The notes under the pieces: generated by a model
The model's database searches: none
Seen by the model: only the letters and a program-made list of their open reading frames with translations
Told to the model about the DNA's origin: nothing
In this document: positions 1-27,697 of the stretch, in pieces
Layout: each line of letters begins with the position of its first letter
How positions within the stretch are numbered: the stretch's first letter is position 1
Position numbers and translations under genes: made by a program
DNA from: a virus
Taxonomy: Duplodnaviria > Heunggongvirae > Uroviricota > Caudoviricetes
Length of the DNA: 35,930 nucleotides
IMG/VR virus record: IMGVR_UViG_2671180986_000014
Reading direction: 5' to 3' (one strand)

Positions 1-996
1 CTAACGAACCAGCCAGACCAGCATCAGGATAATCGCGACTAACAGTATCCACAGCGCGGGACGCGTTGCCATATTTTGCAACGTGTCCATCATCGGTGGA
101 AAAGGATTAAGCAGCGGTTGCATATCACGCGGATCAATCCCTTTAACCCGCCGTTGATAAAGCTGATTAAGAATATCCTCGGCCTGGGCAGAAGAAAGCG
201 ATGATTGCGCAGAAAGACCATATTTTTGCTGGATATACGCCGATAACGCTGCCAGTTCACTGGCATCTAAAGGTTGTTTTAGCGCCATCTGTAGTGATTC
301 CAGCGTCGGCGTATTTTGCTGGCTTAACGTCTGGCGCGCCTGCAACCAGGTCACCAGATGGTTAAACAGTTTCGCTGGAATTAACTCGCCATCGTTCACC
401 CCGGAAAGTTCCAGCATCGATTGCCAGATCTGTTTGCTGGGTTCCCCCGTTGCCGCCGCAAGTTTGGTCACCAGCTGTTTTAGCGCATTGTGCTCCGCCG
501 GTAATAAAGGACGGTCGGTCGCCTCGCGCTGCTGTGGTTGCGGAATAACCATCTTCCCTTCCTGCAACAGGGTGAGAATGGTTTTTAATTGCTCCGGTGA
601 GAGCTGATTCAGCGGCGTCTGACCAAAGTTATGACGGATATAATCCGTGACCGCCTGACGATTATTCCCCAGACGTAAATACTCCCCTAATTGCGCTAAA
701 AGCTGGCGGGCAGAATGGCTTTTTTGCGCGGCCAGCAGACGTTGCGCCAGATTATGCTCAGCGGCAGGGAAGTGACGCGAAAGCAGCGGTGAATCTCCCG
801 ACAGACCAATATCGTGCCTGATACCCGCCCACAGTTCTGCTCTTTGTTGTTGCGTCAGTGAGGTCACTTTCGTCATTAAGCTTTCCAGCGAAGTACGTTG
901 CTGACTGGATAAAGGCTGATTGCCCGCGCCAGACGGCAGGTTATCTCCCTGACCTGGTGGTTGCCCAGGAGGAGGGCCGGAAATAGGTTGTATCAT
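1..996 (-). CDS. flk: flagellar regulator Flk (host gene, complete)
   Basis: 331-aa ORF, ATG at 994-996, TAG at 1-3; Pro/Gln-rich N-terminus and hydrophobic C-terminal anchor match enterobacterial Flk as I recall it. Confidence 0.85.
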   Translation of the reverse strand: MIQPISGPPPGQPPGQGDNLPSGAGNQPLSSQQRTSLESLMTKVTSLTQQQRAELWAGIRHDIGLSGDSPLLSRHFPAAEHNLAQRLLAAQKSHSARQLLAQLGEYLRLGNNRQAVTDYIRHNFGQTPLNQLSPEQLKTILTLLQEGKMVIPQPQQREATDRPLLPAEHNALKQLVTKLAAATGEPSKQIWQSMLELSGVNDGELIPAKLFNHLVTWLQARQTLSQQNTPTLESLQMALKQPLDASELAALSAYIQQKYGLSAQSSLSSAQAEDILNQLYQRRVKGIDPRDMQPLLNPFPPMMDTLQNMATRPALWILLVAIILMLVWLVR

Positions 997-3053: not shown

Positions 3054-4267
3054 TCACTCTGTTTCCGCTATCCATTCCGGGATTTTTGCCTCAAGCTCAA
3101 GCTGTGTGGTAAAGCCGCTGTTATCAATGGTGTGCCCGGCTTTTGCAATAATCCAGTCCTGATTATCGATGTCACTTTTGAAGCCTGTCACCGTGCCATG
3201 CATTTCAGGGTAGAGTTCTGCACGTCCACGCGCCAGCGTGATGGAGAAGGATGCGGCTCCGCGTTGTANNNNNNNNNNNNNNNNNNNNNNNNNNNNNNNN
3301 NNNNNNNNNNNNNNNNNNNNNNNNNNNNNNNNNNNNNNNNNNNNNNNNNNNNNNNNNNNNNNNNNNNNNNNNNNNNNNNNNNNNNNNNNNNNNNNNNNNN
3401 NNNNNNNNNNNNNNNNNNNNNNNNNNNNNNNNNNNNNNNNNNNNNNNNNNNNNNNNNNNNNNNNNNNNNNNNNNNNNNNNNNNNNNNNNNNNNNNNNNNN
3501 NNNNNNNNNNNNNNNNNNNNNNNNNNNNNNNNNNNNNNNNNNNNNNNNNNNNNNNNNNNNNNNNNNNNNNNNNNNNNNNNNNNNNNNNNNNNNNNNNNNN
3601 NNNNNNNNNNNNNNNNNNNNNNNNNNNNNNNNNNNNNNNNNNNNNNNNNNNNNNNNNNNNNNNNNNNNNGCGCGTTCACGCCACCGCCTGGCATAATGAA
3701 TAACAGATTACCGCTTTTTACCGTGGTGACTGCGCCCAGCATTTCCGCCATGCGCGTAAGGAAGGACATGTCGCTTTCTTCAGTCTGGTCGGCGTGGTCG
3801 ATTTCGATATCCATCAGCATTTCGCTGATTTGCGGTTTCAGACCGTACCGGTGAGCGATGGCGGATACCACACGCTCAATGGTCACATCATGCCAGGACA
3901 CCTCACGTTTAACGTTAAATTCATCCCGAAAATCTGCGCTTCTGGCTGAAACAGTCAGCCTGTCCGGCGGTCCTTCGTGAGCGATTTCATCAACAATATA
4001 AGTGCCTTTTTCTGTCAGTGGTTCTCCTTTCCAGCCAATGAGAACCGTCAGGCGCGCGCCCCGTGGTGGTAGCTGCAACTGACCATCTGCATCATCCAGC
4101 GTGATGGTGAGCTGGTCCGCTTCAAATCCCCGGTTGTCGGTCAGTGACAGGCTCATCAGTCGCTCTGTCACGTCGGGCAGTGTTTCACCTTCCGCGAGAA
4201 TATCAAAATCCGGCATTTTCACGGGGTCTGGGCCCTGACTGAGCAATTGCATGGTGGTGTCGGTCAT
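3054..4267 (-). CDS. D: tail protein D (late control D family); interior masked by 401 N
   Basis: N-terminus from ATG 4265-4267 (AGGGAGG ribosome-binding site); true C-terminus found in a different frame from the track, ending ...PEWIAETE with TGA at 3054-3056. Confidence 0.8.
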
Positions 4268-4424
4268 CTGTTCCCTCCCTGTGCGGCATGGTCGCATGTG
4301 CGTGCGGAGGGGGTTACTGCTTTTTGTTGTCGCCGTGGCGGGAGAACGGCGCAGGGGTGAGATTACGCGCGTGGTGGGTGATGATTGTTGCCGAATCATT
4401 TAACGGATACAAGGGGCTGAAGCT

Positions 4425-5609
4425 ATGAGTGAAACTCGTTTTCATGGTGCCCGTGTTACGGAAAGTACCAACCTGGTAACAGCGATTAATGATGTTGATT
4501 CCAGTGTTATCGGTATCGTGGCAACGGCGGATGATGCGGACGCGGAGCTGTTCCCGCTGAACAAGCCCACACTGCTGACCCGCGTCAATGACGTGCTGGG
4601 AAAATGCGGAACAACGGGGACGCTTTATCGTGCGCTTAAGGCCATCGCAGACCAGGTGAGCACAAAGGTGATCGTCGTTCGCGTGGCTGAACACAAAGAA
4701 GAAGACGGAAAAACGCAGGATCAACTGGTTATCGGTGGTTCTGAATCTGACGGCAGCTATACGGGGATGTATGCGCTGCTTGTTGCAGAGCAGGATGAAA
4801 GCATCGGATACCGTCCGCGTATTCTGGCCGCGCCGGAGCTGGACACGGAGGCGGTAACAAAATCCCTGTGCGTGATTGCAGGTAAACTGCGCGCGTTTGT
4901 GTATGCCTCATGTCACGGCTGTAACACGATGGCTGAGGCGATTACCTACCGCCAGAAATTCAACGAACGTGAGGTGATGCTCTTATGGCCGGACTTCATC
5001 GCCTGGAACCCGAAAAGTGGCAAAAACGAAACGTTCCCCGCGCCTGCCTATGCGTGCGGCCTTCGTGCGTACATTGACCATGAGCAGGGCTGGCACAAAT
5101 CATTGTCCAACGTTCCGGTTAAAAATGTGCTGGGGATGTCGAGGCATGTGTTCTGGTCGTTGCAGGCCGAAGACAGCGATGCCAACAGCCTCAACAACAA
5201 AGAAATCACGACCATTATTCGTCGTAACGGGTTCCGCTTCTGGGGCAACCGCACACCGGAAACGAACGCCTACATCTTTGAGGTGTATACCCGAACCGCA
5301 CAGGTGCTGGCTGATTCAATTGTGGAAGCGCAGTTTGAAACCATCGACAGTCCACTGACGCCTGCGAACGTGAAGGATGTTATCAGTGCCATCAGGGCAA
5401 GACTGGATTCACTGGTGACTGCCGGGAAACTGATTGGGGCGTCGTGCTGGTATGACGTGGTGGATAACGGCACCACGGATTTACGTCAGGGGCGCGTGCG
5501 TATTCGCTACAAATATACGCCCGTTCCGCCACTGGAAGATATGGAGCTTTACCAGACGTTTACTGATGAATTCTTTGGTCCCGCATTTGCGGTGCTGGGA
5601 GGTGTCTGA
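4425..5609 (+). CDS. FI: contractile tail sheath protein FI
   Basis: 394-aa ORF with P2 FI-like motifs (KLRAF, RELM..WPDF, IRRNGFRFWGNRT, YKYTPVPPLE); AAGGGG ribosome-binding site. Confidence 0.9.
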   Translation: MSETRFHGARVTESTNLVTAINDVDSSVIGIVATADDADAELFPLNKPTLLTRVNDVLGKCGTTGTLYRALKAIADQVSTKVIVVRVAEHKEEDGKTQDQLVIGGSESDGSYTGMYALLVAEQDESIGYRPRILAAPELDTEAVTKSLCVIAGKLRAFVYASCHGCNTMAEAITYRQKFNEREVMLLWPDFIAWNPKSGKNETFPAPAYACGLRAYIDHEQGWHKSLSNVPVKNVLGMSRHVFWSLQAEDSDANSLNNKEITTIIRRNGFRFWGNRTPETNAYIFEVYTRTAQVLADSIVEAQFETIDSPLTPANVKDVISAIRARLDSLVTAGKLIGASCWYDVVDNGTTDLRQGRVRIRYKYTPVPPLEDMELYQTFTDEFFGPAFAVLGGV

Positions 5610-6121
5610 TGGCTGTACCAAAAAATCTTCGTTTTTTTACGCTGTTTGTGGATGGTGAAAACGAAGTGGGTAAGGTGACGTCCGTCACTCTGCCTAAACT
5701 GACGCGCAAAACCGACAGCTACCGGGGTGGTGGCATGATGGGGGCAGTAAGTATTGATCTCGGCCTGGACGACTCCGCGCTTGATGCGAGCTTTGTCATG
5801 GGGGGCGCAGTTCGTGAGTTGTTCCTGAAGTATGGCGGCACGATTGACGGTACGCTGCTGCGTTTTGCGGGTGAATACTACACCGACGCTGAAAGCGACC
5901 TGTATGAAGTCGAAATGCGCGGACGTGTGACGGAAATTGATATGGGGGAAGCCAAACAGGGTGAGGCCACATCACACACTTACGCCATTAAAAACACCTA
6001 CTACAAGCTGAGTGTTAACGATCGCCCGTTGTGGGAGATTGACCTGCTGAACTTCATTTACCGGAAGGACGGCAGGGACATTGTGCCCGATCGCATCCGT
6101 TCCGCGCTCGGGCTTGGCTGA
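5609..6121 (+). CDS. FII: tail tube protein FII
   Basis: 170-aa ORF; start overlaps FI stop (TGATG); LPKLTRK...YRGGGM and FAGEYY resemble P2 FII. Confidence 0.9.
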   Translation: MAVPKNLRFFTLFVDGENEVGKVTSVTLPKLTRKTDSYRGGGMMGAVSIDLGLDDSALDASFVMGGAVRELFLKYGGTIDGTLLRFAGEYYTDAESDLYEVEMRGRVTEIDMGEAKQGEATSHTYAIKNTYYKLSVNDRPLWEIDLLNFIYRKDGRDIVPDRIRSALGLG

Positions 6122-6175
6122 TAAGTAATATGCAGGCGGCGCAGTGCGTCGCCTCTGACTGAAAGGAGTTTCCTG

Positions 6176-6614
6176 ATGAAAGAGACGAAAAACATCGATA
6201 CCGAAAACACGGTAGTTACTGACACTGTGAAAGAAACCAGTGAGCGTGGCGTAAAACTTACCCAACCAATTGAGCGAGGCGACGAAAAAANNNNNNNNNN
6301 NNNNNNNNNNNNNNNNNNNCGAAAAAATCACGTATGTGGAGATCTCCGGGGCTATTGAGCAGGCTGGTTCTCTGCGAGATTTGTCGCTGTCTGATGTGCT
6401 GAATCTGAAAGCGGAATCCATGTTTACGCTGCTGTCACGCGTGACATCACCGCGACTGGATGAAGTGACGATCAAAAAAANNNNNNNNNNNNNNNNNNNN
6501 NNNNNNNNNNNNNNNNNNNNNNNNNNNNNNNNNNNNNNNNNNNNNNNNNNNNNNNNNNNNNNNNNNNGCGGTGCGGACTCTGGCGGGAAGAACGAACAGG
6601 CGCCGGAAGCCTGA
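6176..6614 (+). CDS. E: tail assembly chaperone E and frameshift extension E' (two N runs inside; boundaries approximate)
   Basis: AAAGGAG ribosome-binding site and ATG at 6176; A7 run at 6474-6480 at the expected E end is a candidate -1 slip site; a second frame ends at 6612-6614. Confidence 0.65.
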
Positions 6615-6622
6615 TCACGGTT

Positions 6623-9600
6623 GTGTGCTTTGAGCACATAGAAGACTTTGTGGCAGATATTGCCGTTATTTTTAACTGGTCGCCCGCCGAAATCTNNNNN
6701 NNNNNNNNNNNNNNNNNNNNNNNNNNNNNNNNNNNNNNNNNNNNNNNNNNNNNNNNNNNNNNNNNNNNNNNNNNNNNNNNNNNNNNNNNNNNNNNNNNNN
6801 NNNNNNNNNNNNNNNNNNNNNNNNNNNNNNNNNNNNNNNNNNNNNNNNNNNNNNNNNNNNNNNNNNNNNNNNNNNNNNNNNNNNNNNNNNNNNNNNNNNN
6901 NNNNNNNNNNNNNNNNNNNNNNNNNNNNNNNNNNNNNNNNNNNNNNNNNNNNNNNNNNNNNNNNNNNNNNNNNNNNNNNNNNNNNNNNNNNNNNNNNNNN
7001 NNNNNNNNNNNNNNNNNNNNNNNNNNNNNNNNNNNNNNNNNNNNNNNNNNNNNNNNNNNNNNNNNNNNNNNNNNNNNNNNNNNNNNNNNNNNNNNNNNNN
7101 NNNNNNNNNNNNNNNNNNNNNCTTGGCGGAGAGCTGAANNNNNNNNNNNNNNNNNNNNNNNNNNNNNNNNNNNNNNNNNNNNNNNNNNNNNNNNNNNNNN
7201 NNNNNNNNNNNNNNNNNNNNNNNNNNNNNNNNNNNNNNNNNNNNNNNNNNNNNNNNNNNNNNNNNNNNNNNNNNNNNNNNNNNNNNNNNNNNNNNNNNNN
7301 NNNNNNNNNNNNNNNNNNNNNNNNNNNNNNNNNNNNNNNNNNNNNNNNNNNNNNNNNNNNNNNNNNNNNNNNNNNNNNNNNNNNNNNNNNNNNNNNNNNN
7401 NNNNNNNNNNNNNNNNNNNNNNNNNNNNNNNNNNNNNNNNNNNNNNNNNNNNNNNNNNNNNNNNNNNNNNNNNNNNNNNNNNNNNNNNNNNNNNNNNNNN
7501 NNNNNNNNNNNNNNAAAACTTGGCTCTGAAACGCAGTTCACCGCAGGCGATGCCGCCAGTGGACAGGCATTTCTTTCAATGGCTGGCTTCACACCGCAGG
7601 CCATTCAGGCTGCGCTTCCCGGCGTGCTGAGCATGGCAACGGCTGGCGGTATGGACCTCGGCGAGACGGCAGATATTGGTTCCAATATCCTGACGCAGTT
7701 CGGCCTTTCTGCTGACCAGATGGACCGGGTCGGTGACACACTTACCGCAGCGTTTACCCGTACCAACACTGACCTTCGCGCACTGGGCGAAACCATGAAA
7801 TATGCAGGTCCGGTGGCGGGTAAGCTGGGAATATCGCTGGAGCAGGCCGCAGCGATGGCGGGCGTGCTGGCGAAGATGGGTATCAGGGGGAGTGATGCAG
7901 GTACAGCGTTGCGTAAAAGCCTGGCCAATCTGTCATCACCGCCAAAGGCAGCGGCAGAAGCACTGAAAGAGCTGGGGGTGTCAGTTGCTGACGCCAAAGG
8001 CAAAATGCGCCCGATGGAGAATGTGCTGGCCGATCTCTATAAAGCCACCCGCAAATACGGGGAGGTTGACCGGGTATCGTTCTTTAAGGACATTGCCGGA
8101 GAAGAGGCTTTCACATCATTTATGGGCCTCGTTGATGCGGCAGGTGACGGCTTCTTAGCCAAACTGAGAAAAGAACTTGAAGGCGCGCGCGGTGAGGCAG
8201 AACGCACGGCAAAGGTTATGGCCAATAACCTTGATGGCGACCTGAAATCACTCGGCAGTGCATGGGAAGGTCTGCGTATTCGCATCAGTGATCTGGTTGA
8301 CGGTCCGCTGCGTTCTGTCACGCAGTGGCTCACGCGGGTTGTCTCAAAGGTGACGGCGCTGGCGCAGGCCCACCCGGCACTGACGCGCCAGTTACTGATA
8401 GCGGGAGGCGCACTGCTGGCGACAACAGCAACGGTTGGTTCGTTGTCTCTGGTTATTGGGGTGCTTCACGGGAAGCTGGCTACGTTGCGTCTCGGTTTTT
8501 CTCTCCTGACCGGATCAATGAATGTTGTCAGGGTTCTGCCTGCATTATGGGGAATGGTGACGGGTTCCGTTTCTTTACTGGGAGGCGCTATCGGGGCGCT
8601 GTTCAGTCCGGTTGGATTGATTGCTGCTGCGTTTGTGGCTGNNNNNNNNNNNNNNNNNNNNNNNNNNNNNNNNNNNNNNNNNNNNNNNNNNNNNNNNNNN
8701 NNNNNNNNNNNNNNNNNNNNNNNNGGTTCTCATCTGGAAATACTGGGATCCCATCAGGGCATTTTTTGCCGGGGTGTTCAGCGGGATTATGGAAAGGCTG
8801 ACCCCGTTGCGCGAAACCTTTGAACGGTTTGGCCCTGTTTTTGATGTCGTGCGCGATGGGATTATTCAGGTCTTTAACTGGTTTAAATCGCTGCTGTCAC
8901 CGATGGAGTCCGGCAAGGAAACGCTGGATAAATGTACCAGTGCTGGCGAGATATTCGGTAACGTTCTTGGTGGCGCGCTACATCTTGTTCTGACGCCTGC
9001 AAAAATGTTGCTGGATACGCTGGCGTGGATACTTGAAAAACTCGGTGTGCTTCCGGATGAAGCGGAAAGGGCGAGAAAGAAAATCGAAGACGCACAGCGT
9101 GCGGCCATTCTTCAGGACAAGGTTGCTCTGTTTCAGGGAGACATTGCGAAAATCAATCCGCCGAAGTCTGCGGAAAATGGCAATGGCACCGGAGGCGATA
9201 AACCCAAAGACAACAAACCGCTCACAGACAGCAATACCGGCACGCTACGCAGACTCAGCAAAATTGCTGATAACACAGGTAAGCTGGTTGATGAGACAAA
9301 AAAACGTATTGGCCCCGGCGATATTGTCTTTAAGAACCTGCCCCGCGCACTTGCTGTTCGTGGGGAGTGGCAGGAGCGGAAGATTGCGCAGGTCAGTAAG
9401 CCTGCTTCCGCAATCAACATCACACCCGTGGTCCCGACTCCGCTGCCTCCGGCGCTGGTCCCTGTTGTTGCGGCCAGCTCCCGCCCGGTGGCGGAGGCCA
9501 TACGATCGCCAGTGGCATCAGTTCCTGCAACTTCCCGTAACCGGGAGCCTGTTGCCTCCGGATTTGGCGGTGAAATTCATGTTCATCTGCATAACGTTGT

Positions 9601-9706
9601 TACGCAGAATCCCCGCGAACTGGCGAAACTGGTCGGTGAAATGGTCAGGGCAGAAATGGAACGGCGCGCCCGTGCCGGGCGTGGCAGTTTTTACGATAAA
9701 GATTGA
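6623..9706 (+). CDS. T: tail tape measure protein T (start uncertain; about 0.9 kb masked)
   Basis: long Ala/Gly-rich ORF with hydrophobic central segments, TGA at 9704-9706; sits between E' and U. Confidence 0.8.
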
Positions 9707-9712
9707 GGAGTT

Positions 9713-10207
9713 ATGGCCATGATGATGATCTACGGCATGTTTGTTTTTGAGCTGCGCACGCTGCCGCATCAGCAGTTACAGCAAAACAAAAGCTGGCGGC
9801 ATGTGAAAAATGAACGCGTTAACCGTTCAGCAAGCTGGCAGTATATCGGTGCAGGTGATGATCGCATCGTTCTTTCTGGTGTGCTTTATCCTGAAATTAC
9901 AGGTGGCGAAGTATCGCTGTCGCTGCTGACCACGCAGGCGTATACAGGACGACCCTGGCCTCTGATTGATGGCGTCGGGCAGATTTACGGCATGTATGTC
10001 CTGACCGGAACGAATACGACCCGTTCCGAGTTTGATCGCTACGGTAAGGCGAAAAAGATAGAATTTTCACTGACCCTTGAACGCTGTGATGAGGATTTGC
10101 GGGAGCGCCTGCAATCCTCATCGTTCAGCGATATGCTGTCCGGCTTCAAAGATAAGGTGACAACATCCATTAACAACGCGGCCAGTTCAGTTAAAGGGCT
10201 GTTCTGA
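9713..10207 (+). CDS. U: tail protein U
   Basis: MMMIYGMFVFELRTLP...SWRH resembles P2 gpU; GAGGAG ribosome-binding site favours ATG at 9719 over 9713. Confidence 0.85.
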   Translation: MAMMMIYGMFVFELRTLPHQQLQQNKSWRHVKNERVNRSASWQYIGAGDDRIVLSGVLYPEITGGEVSLSLLTTQAYTGRPWPLIDGVGQIYGMYVLTGTNTTRSEFDRYGKAKKIEFSLTLERCDEDLRERLQSSSFSDMLSGFKDKVTTSINNAASSVKGLF

Positions 10208-10218
10208 TTTAACACAAT

Positions 10219-10250
10219 AACCGCTAATGGTCAGATTAGCGGTTATTTTG
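10219..10250 (+). terminator. rho-independent terminator after U (10-bp stem, T-tract)
   Basis: aaccgctaat / attagcggtt followed by attttg. Confidence 0.6.
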
Positions 10251-10255
10251 TCAGG

Positions 10256-10408
10256 GATAAAACCCAGCTATGGGACTCACAGCTACGGCTGGGCATCATT
10301 TCCGACGAGAATAAACAAAAATTAACCGAGTGGATGCTCTATGCGCAGAAGGTCGAATCCACAGACACCTCCAGCCTGCCAGTAACATTTCCCGAACAAC
10401 CAGAATGA
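10256..10408 (+). pseudogene. 5'-truncated remnant of a second tail-fibre assembly (tfa) gene, C-terminal ~50 codons only
   Basis: start-less frame ending TGA 10406-10408 encodes ...LTEWMLYAQKVESTDTSSLPVTFPEQPE, parallel to the G C-terminus ...[26 protein letters not shown]. Confidence 0.5.
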
Positions 10409-10410
10409 GA

Positions 10411-10440
10411 GAAGGCCCGATATCGGGCCTTAATTTTTAT
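10411..10440 (+). terminator. hairpin plus T-tract between the tfa remnant and the 3' end of G
   Basis: aggcccgat / atcgggcct followed by taatttttatt; overlaps the G stop codon. Confidence 0.4.
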
Positions 10441-10964
10441 TCAGGCTTTTGTGGCCATTCAGGATTTGCCGTATCCACACGGCTGACCAGAACACTGTAG
10501 CGTTCCCATGACTCCAGTCGTGCGTGTTCCTCATCCGTCGCCATATTCAGCCTGACAGCGCGTTCCAGCGGCTGGATGACTGATTCAGCTTCGGAAAGTA
10601 ACGCGGCCTTTTGTGATTCGGCCTGTTGCTGCTGTTCGTCTGCTGTATAAGTCCTCCTGACCACCGCTCCGTCCTTAAACATCCACTTCCCTGAATCATC
10701 GGCACGACGGTTAGCTGTTATATCGGGGATTTCAACGACGCTAAAACCTTCAGGATTAAGCGTGGAGGCATCTTTAGTGACGGCGACAATAATATTATTT
10801 TCGTCGTAAACAATCTTTATTGTATCCGGCTGAAAGTTCTTCACTTCCTCATACCAGTTTTTCCCGTCTTCAGCGTAAAGCCAGATGACTCCGTGCTTCT
10901 TTGTTAACTCATACTGCTCCAGTGTTTTAGCATTACCCGCTTTTATGTTCTTTAAGTGCATCAT
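10437..10964 (-). CDS. G: tail fibre assembly protein G
   Basis: 175-aa ORF directly after H; typical Tfa C-terminus. Confidence 0.85.
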
Positions 10965-10965
10965 A

Positions 10966-13052
10966 TTAAACGCTCGCTACATTATACCATGTGCCATTTA
11001 TATACTTTTGAACGGGTCTGTAATAAACGCCAGCTATATTATCGGCAGAGTTTTTGCCTGTATCCTGAACATTAATACCAGACAATACATGACCTGAAGG
11101 GCACTGGAAATTCCATGTTTGCCAGTTATTCACACCATAATATTGCTGTGAGCCAAGCCGGACATCTTTCACATATCTGGAGTCAAAATTGCCATAATTG
11201 CCGGGAATAACTTGCGCACCACAAAGCCAGTTACCGTTATTATCCATGTACGCCTGACCATCGGTGCCATTGGCTGTCCTTGAGTTATTAATCATGTAGA
11301 TGCCAAATTGCCTATTTCCCAGCCCACCAATCATAAATTTGCGATCAGCATGGTCCTGACGAAGTAATGCCTGCGCACCATCGGTGGATACCGCATTGCG
11401 TCCCAAAATAACATTCTGGTCACGCATATGAATCCACATGCCGGTACTACTGTTAATTGCAAAACGGTTTGCAAATATATCTCCTGTAACAACCAGACCA
11501 TGCCCCATGCTTATCCGGCCAGTTCTGAGATTAAGCGTAAAGGGGCGTAATGGCCCTATATTACCATTTTCTCCCTCATTCTCTCGTGTAGGGATGATAT
11601 GCAGGCATTCTTCAGAACGGCGAAAAATGGCACCAAAAGATGAATTAAATATCCTCAGTGCATTGACTGTCGATATTTTCACTTCACTGCTGAAAAGGGC
11701 TTTAACAAGAACAGACAAAGCATTCCATTTAAGATTCATCAGGTCTTTAGGCCGGGTGCCAATGATGCGGTGTCTCCATTTGAAATACTCATTGCCGTTG
11801 TCGCCTGTTTCAAACCACATGTATGAATCAGTGTCGCTGTCGGCATCATTTTTAAATCCAATCTTCGCCCAGTCAGTATTCCGAATCCAGGCAAGGATTG
11901 AGTCGTTTTCAAAAGTAAGTCCGCCGGACAAGGTATCGCCTGTCTTTTGAACGGCATTACCAGCCTTGTTTACCGTTTCCTGTAAACCGAGGTATTCGAT
12001 AACGGCGGCAACGGTCGATTTCGCAAGAATATCCCGCCCGACTTTTGTCAGGGTTGCCAGGCTGGCGACATCATTCCCCGTAAAATACGGAAACCTGTCT
12101 GCCGCAGTAGCAAGCCCCGCCAGCGCCGTCAGAGTGGCATCTTTCGGTTGCTTACCCGCAAGCGCGTTAGTCATGGTGGTCGCAAAATTCGGGTCGTTGC
12201 CCAGCGCCGCCGCCAGCTCGTTCAGTGTGTTCAGTGCATCAGGCGAAGAGTCTACAAGTGCGGCAATCGCAGCCATAACGAAAGCCGTGCTTGCGATTTG
12301 GGTATTATTCGTTCCCTGTCGCGCAGTTGGTGTTGTTGGCGTTCCGGTCAGTGCCGGGCTGTTTAATGGGGCTTTCTTGTTCGTTTCATCCATTACTGCC
12401 TTAACGGCTTTTGGTGTCGCTGCCAGCGTTTCAGACGTGCTGTTGGTGGCGTNNNNNNNNNNNNNNNNNNNNNNNNNNNNNNNNNNNNNNNNNNNNNNNN
12501 NNNNNNNNNNNNNNNNNNNNNNNNNNNNNNNNNNNNNNNNNNNNNNNNNNNNNNNNNNNNNNNNNNNNNNNNNNNNNNNNNNNNNNNNNNNNNNNNNNNN
12601 NNNNNNNNNNNNNNNNNNNNNNNNNNNNNNNNNNNNNNNNNNNNNNNNNNNNNNNNNNNNNNNNNNNNNNNNNNNNNNNNNNNNNNNNNNNNNNNNNNNN
12701 NNNNNNNNNNNNNNNNNNNNNNNNNNNNNNNNNNNNNNNNNNNNNNNNNNNNNNNNNNNNNNNNNNNNNNNNNNNNNNNNNNNNNNNNNNNNNNNNNNNN
12801 NNNNNNNNNNNNNNNNNNNNNNNNNNNNNNNNNNNNNNNNNNNNNNNNNNNNNNNNNNNNNNNNNNNNNNNNNNNNNNNNNNNNNNNNNNNNNNNNNNNN
12901 NNNNNNNNNNNNNNNNNNNNNNNNNNNNNNNNNNNNNNNNNNNNNNNNNNNNNNNNNNNNNNNNNNNNNNNNNNNNNNNNNNNNNNNNNNNNTAATTTTT
13001 TTGCACCCGTATCGGTGATAATGGTTTTAAATTTTCGTGTTGTGGTACTCAT
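10966..13052 (-). CDS. H: tail fibre protein H (540 N inside)
   Basis: N-terminus [20 protein letters not shown] and the long C-terminal part resemble P2 gpH as recalled. Confidence 0.85.
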
Positions 13053-25529: not shown

Positions 25530-25630
25530 AAGACAGCCTCCAGTGATTTCTTTGCTCGTATTTTGCGCTTATGAAGTGTGGTCGGCAAGGTGCCGCATCA
25601 CTGACGCGCTTCGCTTGTCTGCTGCTTCGC

Positions 25631-25719
25631 CGGGGCATAAANNNNNNNNNNNNNNNNNNNNNNNNNNNNNNNNNNNNNNNNNNNNNNNNNNNNNNNNNNN
25701 NNNNNNNNTTTATGCCCCG
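25631..25719. repeat. 11-bp inverted repeat (cggggcataaa / tttatgccccg) flanking a 67-N run between the paralogs
   Basis: read directly on both sides of N 25642-25708. Confidence 0.6.
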
Positions 25720-25734
25720 ACTCTCCAGCTCTGT

Positions 25735-26238
25735 TTAACGAAGTGCTGATGGCGCGCGCTTTTTCAGGTGATTAGCGATGTGCTTTTTCACATGCATAAC
25801 AACATCGCCCCAGGCTTCTTCACTGGGTTTATTGATAAATACGCGAACAGAAATATCGTCTTCCACCCGGACTCTCAGAGACACCCGTTCCGCATCCACT
25901 GAATATAATTCAAGTGCAATAACCACGCTTACGGGGTAGCTGCAATCAGATGACTTAACCCAGGTTCGCACGGCCATGCGAAAAATATTGTCTGGTGTAG
26001 ATGCGATATTGTGGACTGAAAGCGGACTAAAATCCGCTGCCGTCTTACATGGCAAGCCTGTCTCCACGTAGCGGTGCAGGTCGCCATCATCGTCTTCCCA
26101 GTACATGGATGGAAGCCCCAGCCATTCTTCATAGAAATCAATCAGCCTTGCTGCTTCATCCCGCAAAATTTGCGCTGCCTCAGCGCGTTTTTCTTCAGCT
26201 TCACGATTGATCTGGCATAAATCATTAAAGTGGCTCAT
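25735..26238 (-). CDS. hypothetical protein, paralog 2 (167 aa from ATG 26236-26238)
   Basis: AAGAGGA ribosome-binding site before the internal ATG; track start further upstream is not supported. Confidence 0.6.
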   Translation of the reverse strand: MSHFNDLCQINREAEEKRAEAAQILRDEAARLIDFYEEWLGLPSMYWEDDDGDLHRYVETGLPCKTAADFSPLSVHNIASTPDNIFRMAVRTWVKSSDCSYPVSVVIALELYSVDAERVSLRVRVEDDISVRVFINKPSEEAWGDVVMHVKKHIANHLKKRAPSALR

Positions 26239-26659
26239 GACATTATCCTCTTTTGAGTTGATGCCTGCCGCTATTCTGGCTTTGCCCGAACCCCCCTGCA
26301 AGCTGGTTATTCCATCAGATAATTTCACAACATCTCCAGCCCTGTAGCCATTATCGCCGGGCTGGTACTTACGTAACCCCGCAGTGCTGACTGCATGTTT
26401 CTCGCTGCCTCAGTGCGATTTTGACGGTCTTACCTTTCAGCCCATCAAATCAGAACCCCTCACGTCTTTTTCACGCTCAGCGTGAGAAATACAGCCATTC
26501 TGTTGTGTCGCTGCGACATCGTTCAGGGAATGCTATTTACCCCCTGAAACGCGGGCTGTTCCCCCGTCACCTGCGCGCAGAAAAAACGCGTTTTTTTGTG
26601 CACGCACGGATCCTTGACGGATCCAGTCGCCACGCGGGCCGGAAGGGTAAAAAGTTGTT

Positions 26660-26706
26660 CAAAAAAATTGTGCAAATTTGTGCACTATTGTGCGGTGTAT
26701 AAAATG
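26660..26706 (+). promoter_or_regulatory. candidate phd/doc promoter-operator: three TTGTGC repeats at 10-bp spacing followed by a TATAAA-like -10
   Basis: TTGTGC at 26668, 26678, 26688; gtataaaat at 26696-26704; TTGACG -35 candidate at 26614. Confidence 0.3.
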
Positions 26707-26767
26707 AAAATATGGCGGTGTTATTACTGCCCAACAAGCCGTTATACTTACGTTATGGGCGTGCATA

Positions 26768-27124
26768 ATGGAAATGAATATGAAAACTGTAACTGATGAT
26801 GAATTTCGTGAGAACCTGAGTGAAATTCTGGATTACCTTTCTTCCGGTGGCAGTGTCGTTATCACGGCGCAGGGAGGGAAGGATGTTGTTCTTGCTGGTT
26901 CTGATCTTAGTCCTGAAATACGGGCTGTCCTTGGCAAAACCAAAAAACTGCGGGATCAAATAAACAAAATGAAGCAACCACTCTTAATAAATGCAGTGAG
27001 AGATCTGGAAAAACGTCATCCAGCTCTTGTCGCACAGAGAAAAAAAGGATTGTCTTTTGAAGATGCAATGAAGCGTACAAGAGAAAAACATGCGGATATC
27101 ATTAAAAAGCTTGAGGATAACTGA
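26768..27124 (+). CDS. Phd/YefM-family antitoxin with C-terminal extension
   Basis: N-terminal region (FRENLSEILDYL...VVITAQGGKDVVLAG) has the Phd/YefM pattern; stop overlaps doc start (TGATG). Confidence 0.65.
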   Translation: MEMNMKTVTDDEFRENLSEILDYLSSGGSVVITAQGGKDVVLAGSDLSPEIRAVLGKTKKLRDQINKMKQPLLINAVRDLEKRHPALVAQRKKGLSFEDAMKRTREKHADIIKKLEDN

Positions 27125-27531
27125 TGGACATAGTGTTTTTGTCAAAAGAACAAGTAGAACGTATCCATGCTGAAACTTTACCCCAGAGCGGAAATGCCAA
27201 TGACGGGCTACTTGAAGGTGCTTTAAATCGCGTCAGGACACTACACTACTATGAAGGGGTTGATGATATTCATGCTCTGGCTGCTATGTATTTGATTGGT
27301 ATAGCCAAGGCTCATGCCTTTCATGATGGGAATAAACGCACAGCTTTTCAGGCTGCATCAATATTTTTAATGATGAACTCTTCCGAACTTTCAAACTCCC
27401 TGCTGCTGGTTAAATTAACGGTGTTTTCAGCAATGGGGATAGCTACCCTTGAGGAAGTTACCTTTGCTTTGAAATTGCTGTCTGATTATGGCAATGAATT
27501 AATCAGCGACTACGAAGAAGATTATATTTAA
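27124..27531 (+). CDS. doc: Doc (death-on-curing) toxin, Fic/Doc family
   Basis: Fic/Doc motif HAFHDGNKRTAF; 135 aa; translationally coupled to the antitoxin. Confidence 0.8.
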   Translation: MDIVFLSKEQVERIHAETLPQSGNANDGLLEGALNRVRTLHYYEGVDDIHALAAMYLIGIAKAHAFHDGNKRTAFQAASIFLMMNSSELSNSLLLVKLTVFSAMGIATLEEVTFALKLLSDYGNELISDYEEDYI

Positions 27532-27697
27532 TGCTGGCATACTCTGTCGTGTTAAGACAACAGCCTTTGCGGAGACAGGGCAGGGTGCCAGACTTGCCCG
27601 CAGCGCGTCTGACATGAGCAGTTATTCATCTTTTTTATTGTTTTTCTCCATGCAGGGCGACAGTGCGCCCCGATAAAATTAAAAGCCGTCAAATTCG

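Follow-up and report, generated by a model that had tools for sequence, protein, structure and literature searches.

A truncated tail-fibre assembly gene as the probable remnant of a lost invertible fibre cassette in a P88-like Escherichia coli prophage

We found that a short fragment of a second tail-fibre assembly gene (tfa'), situated just downstream of tail gene U in an E. coli prophage, is very probably the remnant of a P88-like invertible fibre cassette that was lost through a single illegitimate deletion of ~1,979 bp. The window (the whole 35,930-nt stretch of viral DNA analysed) retains one complete fibre arm and one crossover site, while related prophages carry the intact cassette at the same position, some of them sequenced in the opposite orientation. 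The fragment would properly be annotated as a tfa' pseudogene fragment and as the scar left by the loss of an invertible fibre cassette, in a prophage fixed on one fibre type.

Nucleotide similarity and gene order both placed the window in Xuanwuvirus (P88-like Peduoviridae), and on this basis we regard it as a P88-like E. coli prophage of the P2 family. Identity to P88 was 95% at the nucleotide level over 67% of the first 25 kb, with the rest of that stretch largely masked or variable. The genes are ordered D on the minus strand, FI, FII, E, E', T and U on the plus strand, and then G, H, I, J, W and V on the minus strand, and the same D(-) FI-U(+) G-V(-) order was observed in P88, P884B11, Citrobacter phage Shae_phiSM, 520873, 503458 and PhiR44_2. 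When compared to P2 (locus L009), the FI-FII-E-T-U block (~3188-10207) has been inverted without leaving its place between G and D, with D remaining on the V-G strand. This inversion was common to all Xuanwuvirus genomes examined, and in the intact members the invertase gene sits at one edge of the inverted block. Positions 1-996 (minus strand) correspond to E. coli flk, a flagella biosynthesis regulator, by match to a related record; flk also flanks the related prophage 500465-2, and its presence at the left end indicates that the window includes the prophage-chromosome boundary region. The features surrounding the fragment are as follows.

9713-10207, plus strand: tail gene U (P2 GpU family), last of the FI-FII-E-T-U operon (Pfam PF06995, E = 1.5e-38)
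10217-10246, plus strand: U-operon terminator hairpin followed by a short T run (fold -19.6 kcal/mol, z = -6.7)
10243-10251, minus strand: invertase remnant, the last 9 nt (two codons and the stop of the P88 allele), overlapping the tail of the U terminator (alignment to P88 L003 7013-7021)
10248-10251, no strand: deletion junction with a 4-bp microhomology, TTGT (the two P88 alignments overlap by 4 nt)
10250-10407, plus strand: tfa' relic (Mu U'-type tail-fibre assembly gene), codons 126-177 and the stop (Mu U' identity, Pfam Caudo_TAP)
10412-10431, no strand: central hairpin common to both convergent tfa genes (T run on the plus-strand side)
10437-10964, minus strand: intact tail-fibre assembly gene G, Mu U type (Pfam Caudo_TAP, E = 1.4e-36)
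10966-11976, minus strand: variable receptor-binding part of H, the presumed surviving arm of the former invertible segment (between G and the crossover site)
11977-12002, plus strand: orphan gix/cix-like crossover site inside H, TTCCTGTAAACCGAGGTATTCGATAA (2 of 26 positions mismatched to Mu gix)

The sequence-only reading of this region had described a start-less plus-strand frame lying tail-to-tail with G across a hairpin, ending in a parallel to the C-terminus of G, and had taken it for what remains of a second tail-fibre assembly gene in the opposite orientation, within the geometry of a Mu G or P1 C invertible cassette, with only about 50 codons surviving and no invertase nearby. Each of these points was borne out. 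The frame running from 10208 remained open until the TGA at 10405-10407 (reading FNTITANGQISGYFVRDKTQLWDSQLRLGIISDENKQKLTEWMLYAQKVESTDTSSLPVTFPEQPE up to the stop), and no usable in-frame start (ATG, GTG or TTG) was found upstream of its homologous part. Its last 52 codons (10250-10404) matched residues 126-177 of Mu U' at 52 of 52 amino acids; in the tblastn comparison of Mu U' residues 125-177 with the window, 52 of 53 residues were identical (E = 1e-30) and the sole mismatch was the junction codon. The stub also scored 53 bits (E = 5e-14) with the Pfam family PF02413 (Caudo_TAP), for which the cutoff is 22.1, the match covering profile positions 79-130 of 131, and the parallel to the resident G protein amounted to 30% identity over 40 amino acids (E = 6e-5). 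A chance similarity to Tfa proteins, the outcome that would have undone the earlier interpretation, was ruled out by the tblastn and Pfam E-values. At the DNA level, positions 10248-10500 were 96-98% identical to the middle of the invertible segment of Mu, D108, SfMu, P1 and P7, a part made up of the U' 3' end, the intergenic hairpin and the U 3' end.

The profile match, confined to the C-terminal portion, assigns the stub to the Caudo_TAP family (Mu U' subtype). A complete tfa' open reading frame with a start and the N-terminal two thirds was not found, codons 1-125 being missing from the window. Because both the start and these codons are missing, the stub is best classed as a pseudogene fragment of a Caudo_TAP gene rather than as a gene. 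The stub peptide is the exact consensus of the intact tfa' alleles, and its DNA differed from the nearest of these by 2-5 nt, all of them synonymous. The fragment most likely yields no product and is presumably non-functional.

Both sides of the stub are bounded by strong hairpins. Gene U ends with the TGA at 10205-10207, and the 26-nt core of the terminator that follows, AACCGCTAATGGTCAGATTAGCGGTT (10219-10244), was found as an exact match downstream of U in 113 IMG/VR contigs. The stub shares the reading frame of U, and beyond the U stop the next one lies 66 codons on (10205-10407, plus strand), so that read-through would produce a fusion of U to the Tfa' C-terminus. This shared frame probably arose by accident through the deletion, given the strong terminator hairpin directly after the U stop. 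On the other side, the central hairpin separates the stub frame from the stop of the intact G and consists of an 8-bp stem (6 G-C pairs) followed by AATTTTTATT (fold -22.4 kcal/mol, z = -5.9). Mu and D108 have their own hairpin between U' and U at this same position, and the D108 record carries annotated terminators there. The G protein was 91% identical in amino acids to Mu U and 90% to P88 tfa, and the variable part of H was collinear with P88 H and Mu S. We also observed that, if the 540-N mask (12453-12992) preserves length, the N-terminal frame of H (which begins with the ATG at 13052) is one base out of step with its C-terminal frame (open between the mask edge at 12450 and 10966). H (10966-13052, minus strand) then spans 2,087 nt, a length not divisible by 3. 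Either a frameshift in H or a mask that alters the length may account for this. H was ~214 nt shorter than P88 H, with the shortfall located within the 132-bp repeat region.

A Gin/Cin/Pin-type segment comprises an adjoining serine DNA invertase gene, two inverted 26-bp flanking sites, and two fibre C-termini with their own chaperones placed tail-to-tail around a terminator. No match to Gin or to the P88 invertase was found by tblastn in the unmasked window at E <= 1, and all that is left of the gene is 9 nt of its 3' end. Sv' was likewise absent from the unmasked window by tblastn, save for a weak match to H itself. A single gix-like sequence was found, where none is expected by chance; it is the site inside H, identical to the in-H site of P88, and no second crossover site was found in the window. 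Two sites each are present in Mu and P88, as two inverted copies of TTCCTGTAAACCGAGGTTTTGGATAA in the former and as two close variants of the Mu site, ~3.07 kb apart, in the latter. Of the fibre parts, the window holds one full set (Sv and G), the central hairpin and the 52-codon stub of the second chaperone. With one site, one arm and no invertase, the window does not contain a functioning invertible segment, and with one site and no invertase the remaining segment would be unable to flip. These absences apply to the unmasked part of the window, in which 25 N runs cover a total of 6,295 nt (17.5%), mostly inside structural genes (D, T, H, and the capsid and terminase region) and in the early region. 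An invertase hidden in a masked stretch is conceivable in the strict sense; the N runs in the part that can be aligned to P88 (about 2.3-25 kb) lie inside genes syntenic with P88.

The extent of the loss was determined by alignment to the P88 locus (L003). Between the U terminator and G, P88 carries a serine invertase gene of 588 bp (CDS at L003 7013-7600, minus strand), a crossover site, Sv' on the plus strand, and a full tfa' of 534 bp, also on the plus strand. Window positions 9601-10251, the U side, aligned to L003 6371-7021 at 98.8% nucleotide identity, and positions 10248-12450 aligned to L003 9001-11199 at ~87%, so that the window corresponds to P88 minus L003 7022-9000, a gap of ~1,979 bp (about 25577-27555 of KP063541.1). 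TTGT is present on both P88 flanks of the missing 1,979 bp, and the 44 nt kept after the U stop include the terminal 9 nt of a P88-type invertase gene. The lower identity of the fibre/G arm (~87%, against 98.8% on the U side) suggests that the cassette was also reshuffled by recombination and that P88 is not the exact parent.

The deletion appears to be recent, because the stub shows no decay and its differences from intact alleles are all synonymous. Also counted toward recency was the rarity of the junction itself: no full-length single-piece match was found in 5,426 complete E. coli genomes, and exact-match scans of the genome_contigs, viral_contigs and metagenome_contigs collections returned 0 matches. 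A scan of genome_contigs for the U terminator likewise gave no matches, and the cross-species survey was therefore carried out on IMG/VR.

Intact cassettes were readily observed in relatives. An invertase gene, Sv' and tfa' occupy the position of the stub in P88, P884B11 and Shae_phiSM. In 520873 and 503458 the sequenced orientation is the flipped one, and the right halves of their two crossover sites are exchanged relative to P884B11, as strand exchange at the site centre would lead one to expect. Between loci L005/L006 and L007/L008 (sites near 3404-3429 and 6082-6143), which stem from genomes sequenced in opposite orientations, this swap of right halves is a direct footprint of site-specific inversion at the site centre. 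Of the 113 IMG/VR contigs that contain the exact U-terminator core, 100 extended for at least 650 bp downstream, and a full-length invertase directly followed the U terminator in 85 of these 100. The Mu-type tfa' was oriented on the plus strand in 17 and on the minus strand in 12 of the surveyed contigs. In the set of 5,426 complete E. coli genomes, this U end was present in ~1,296, of which 631 had an invertase adjacent to U; the queries with the two invertase alleles cross-match and so count one and the same set. The occurrence of both orientations in relatives indicates that the intact system works in the P88-like lineage. Inversion is not discussed in the P88 paper; experiments have demonstrated it in P2-like prophages of E. 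coli (PMC4272514).

Other states of decay were also observed at this locus. A second deletion was found in PhiR44_2, in E. coli SCU-124 and six other complete genomes, and in three IMG/VR contigs. It lacks an invertase but keeps 59 nt of a P884B11-type invertase 3' end, and its stub begins ~18-20 nt further into tfa' than that of the window and carries a Gly-to-Asp change as well as a CAG-to-TAG change that introduces an in-frame stop. RefSeq annotates the SCU-124 stub (HHJ37_RS09580) as a tfa pseudogene ('tail fiber assembly protein, incomplete, missing N-terminus'). No gix-like site was found in the PhiR44_2 and SCU-124 loci when up to 4 mismatches were allowed, and the annotated H of these loci is longer, at 2,760 bp. 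In a third deletion, on contig L109, a 144-nt invertase stub is joined to the last ~10 codons of tfa'. The PhiR44_2/SCU-124 and L109 deletions have other junctions and are independent of the one in the window, giving at least three deletion alleles. The idea of a deletion hotspot where the U/U' inverted homology ends, which arose from two deletions ending within ~20 nt of each other, was not supported, as the L109 deletion ends ~120 nt further on. Several IMG/VR loci showed further irregularities: split or frameshifted invertase genes (L028, L088, L107), isolated invertase 3' stubs of 144 nt fused to unrelated DNA (L033, L071, L074), and an invertase displaced ~700 bp from U (L042). Locus L126 contained three gix-like sites (1-26, 2953-2978 and 4944-4969) and two tfa' 3' ends, of which one belongs to a truncated tfa'. 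This locus has the look of a shufflon-like variant with multiple segments and resembles the three-repeat P2-like locus reported in EPEC (PMC4272514).

The arrangement of the relatives points to an ancestor with a Gin/Cin-type invertible fibre segment between U and H, in which the invertase, outer site, Sv', tfa', central hairpin, G, and Sv with the inner site inside H would have followed in that order. A single illegitimate deletion of ~1,979 bp in this P88-like ancestor, joined at the 4-bp microhomology, would have taken away all of the invertase but its last 9 nt, together with the outer crossover site, Sv' and tfa' codons 1-125. In Gin and Hin systems a Fis-dependent enhancer lies in the 5' part of the invertase gene, and by analogy this enhancer would have been lost along with the invertase. 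The phage would then have been left fixed on the Sv and G fibre type, and presumably on one host range.

The same arrangement could have been produced if a block consisting of the variable part of H, G, the hairpin and the tfa' 3' end had been imported from a Mu-, P1- or P88-like donor, by a homologous crossover in H and an illegitimate crossover inside the donor tfa', into a phage that never carried the complete cassette. Such an import would suit the mosaic character of the fibre/G arm, which matches P88 at 87% where the U side reaches 98.8%, as well as the observation that the stub and hairpin resemble their Mu, D108 and SfMu counterparts no less closely than those of P88. Fibre-module exchange among these phages is established knowledge, and Haggard-Ljungquist et al. 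reportedly described it in 1992. We nevertheless consider an import quite unlikely. It requires an invertase-less ancestor, whereas 85 of 100 relatives carry an invertase at this exact spot, and the 44 nt kept after the U stop still include 9 nt of a P88-type invertase. An import with one illegitimate end is also less parsimonious than a single internal deletion, and internal deletions recur in the relatives.

A most improbable reading is that the stub is functional, either as a read-through extension of U or as a DNA or RNA element under selection, such as a second plus-strand terminator that shields G and H from antisense read-through of the FI-U operon. The U stop is in frame with the stub with no further stop until 10405, although a frame match is expected by chance in about 1 of 5 cases and the strong terminator hairpin lies directly after that stop. 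The central hairpin does have its T run on the plus strand, and two independent deletions (the window and the PhiR44_2 type) kept similar stubs of ~140-160 nt; however, the PhiR44_2-type stub contains an in-frame TAG and a missense change, L109 keeps only ~10 codons, and the body of the window stub shows no excess of RNA structure (fold z = +0.8). Beyond the hairpin, nothing is consistently kept. A broader view would have loss of the invertase and the alternative arm, with its at least three deletions, as a recurrent and selected 'locking' of host range in P88-like prophages rather than as neutral decay, the stub and hairpin being kept as a back-stop terminator between the convergent late operons; we regard this as unlikely.

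Loss of the cassette by deletion also bears on two further suggestions of the sequence-only reading. The stub had been proposed as one possible breakpoint of the FI-U inversion, and this did not hold: the FI-U orientation is common to the genus, mostly with cassette and invertase intact, which makes the inversion the older event and the 5' edge of the stub the junction of what would be a later deletion. Its description as a mark of past fibre-module exchange was imprecise, as the stub marks the loss of a switchable module and not an exchange. The searches that had been suggested for crossover sites and for invertase genes in relatives were productive, yielding the one gix-like sequence inside H and invertase genes at exactly this position in related phages. 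The locus provides a clean example of the decay of a phase-variable host-range switch, and the relatives provide a rough decay rate (~85% keep the invertase intact, and independent deletion alleles number at least three). It carries little weight beyond annotation. The finding is already known in kind, being an ordinary remnant of a well-known system, and standard annotation covers the relatives.

The similarity of Mu, P1 and P2 fibres is classical. In P2, genes H and G are the counterparts, and G and the fibre repeats are homologous to those of the window. P2 differs in having FI-U-D on the same strand as V-G, and no match to a tfa' stub was found downstream of its G; a P2-style ancestral stub was rejected on the grounds that P2 has none. 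Much closer at the DNA level are the Mu G segment (gin, gix, S/U, S'/U') and the P1/P7 C segment (cin, cix), to which the stub, hairpin and G 3' end are 96-98% identical. With respect to Mu, the stub corresponds to U' residues 126-177, the window site differs from gix at 2 of 26 positions, and G is 91% identical to Mu U. Unlike Mu G and P1 C, the window has one arm and one site, with the invertase, outer site, Sv' and 70% of tfa' gone, and its segment lies between U and H of a P2-family genome, whereas the Mu segment lies at the end of the Mu genome. The Xuanwuvirus cassettes (P88, P884B11, Shae_phiSM, 520873 and 503458) share both backbone and gene order with the window. In P88 the crossover site within H is the same and both flanks of the stub are collinear, the window being without the intervening 1,979 bp. 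The tfa pseudogene of PhiR44_2 and SCU-124 lies in the same position downstream of U and is the same kind of stub, formed by a separate deletion.
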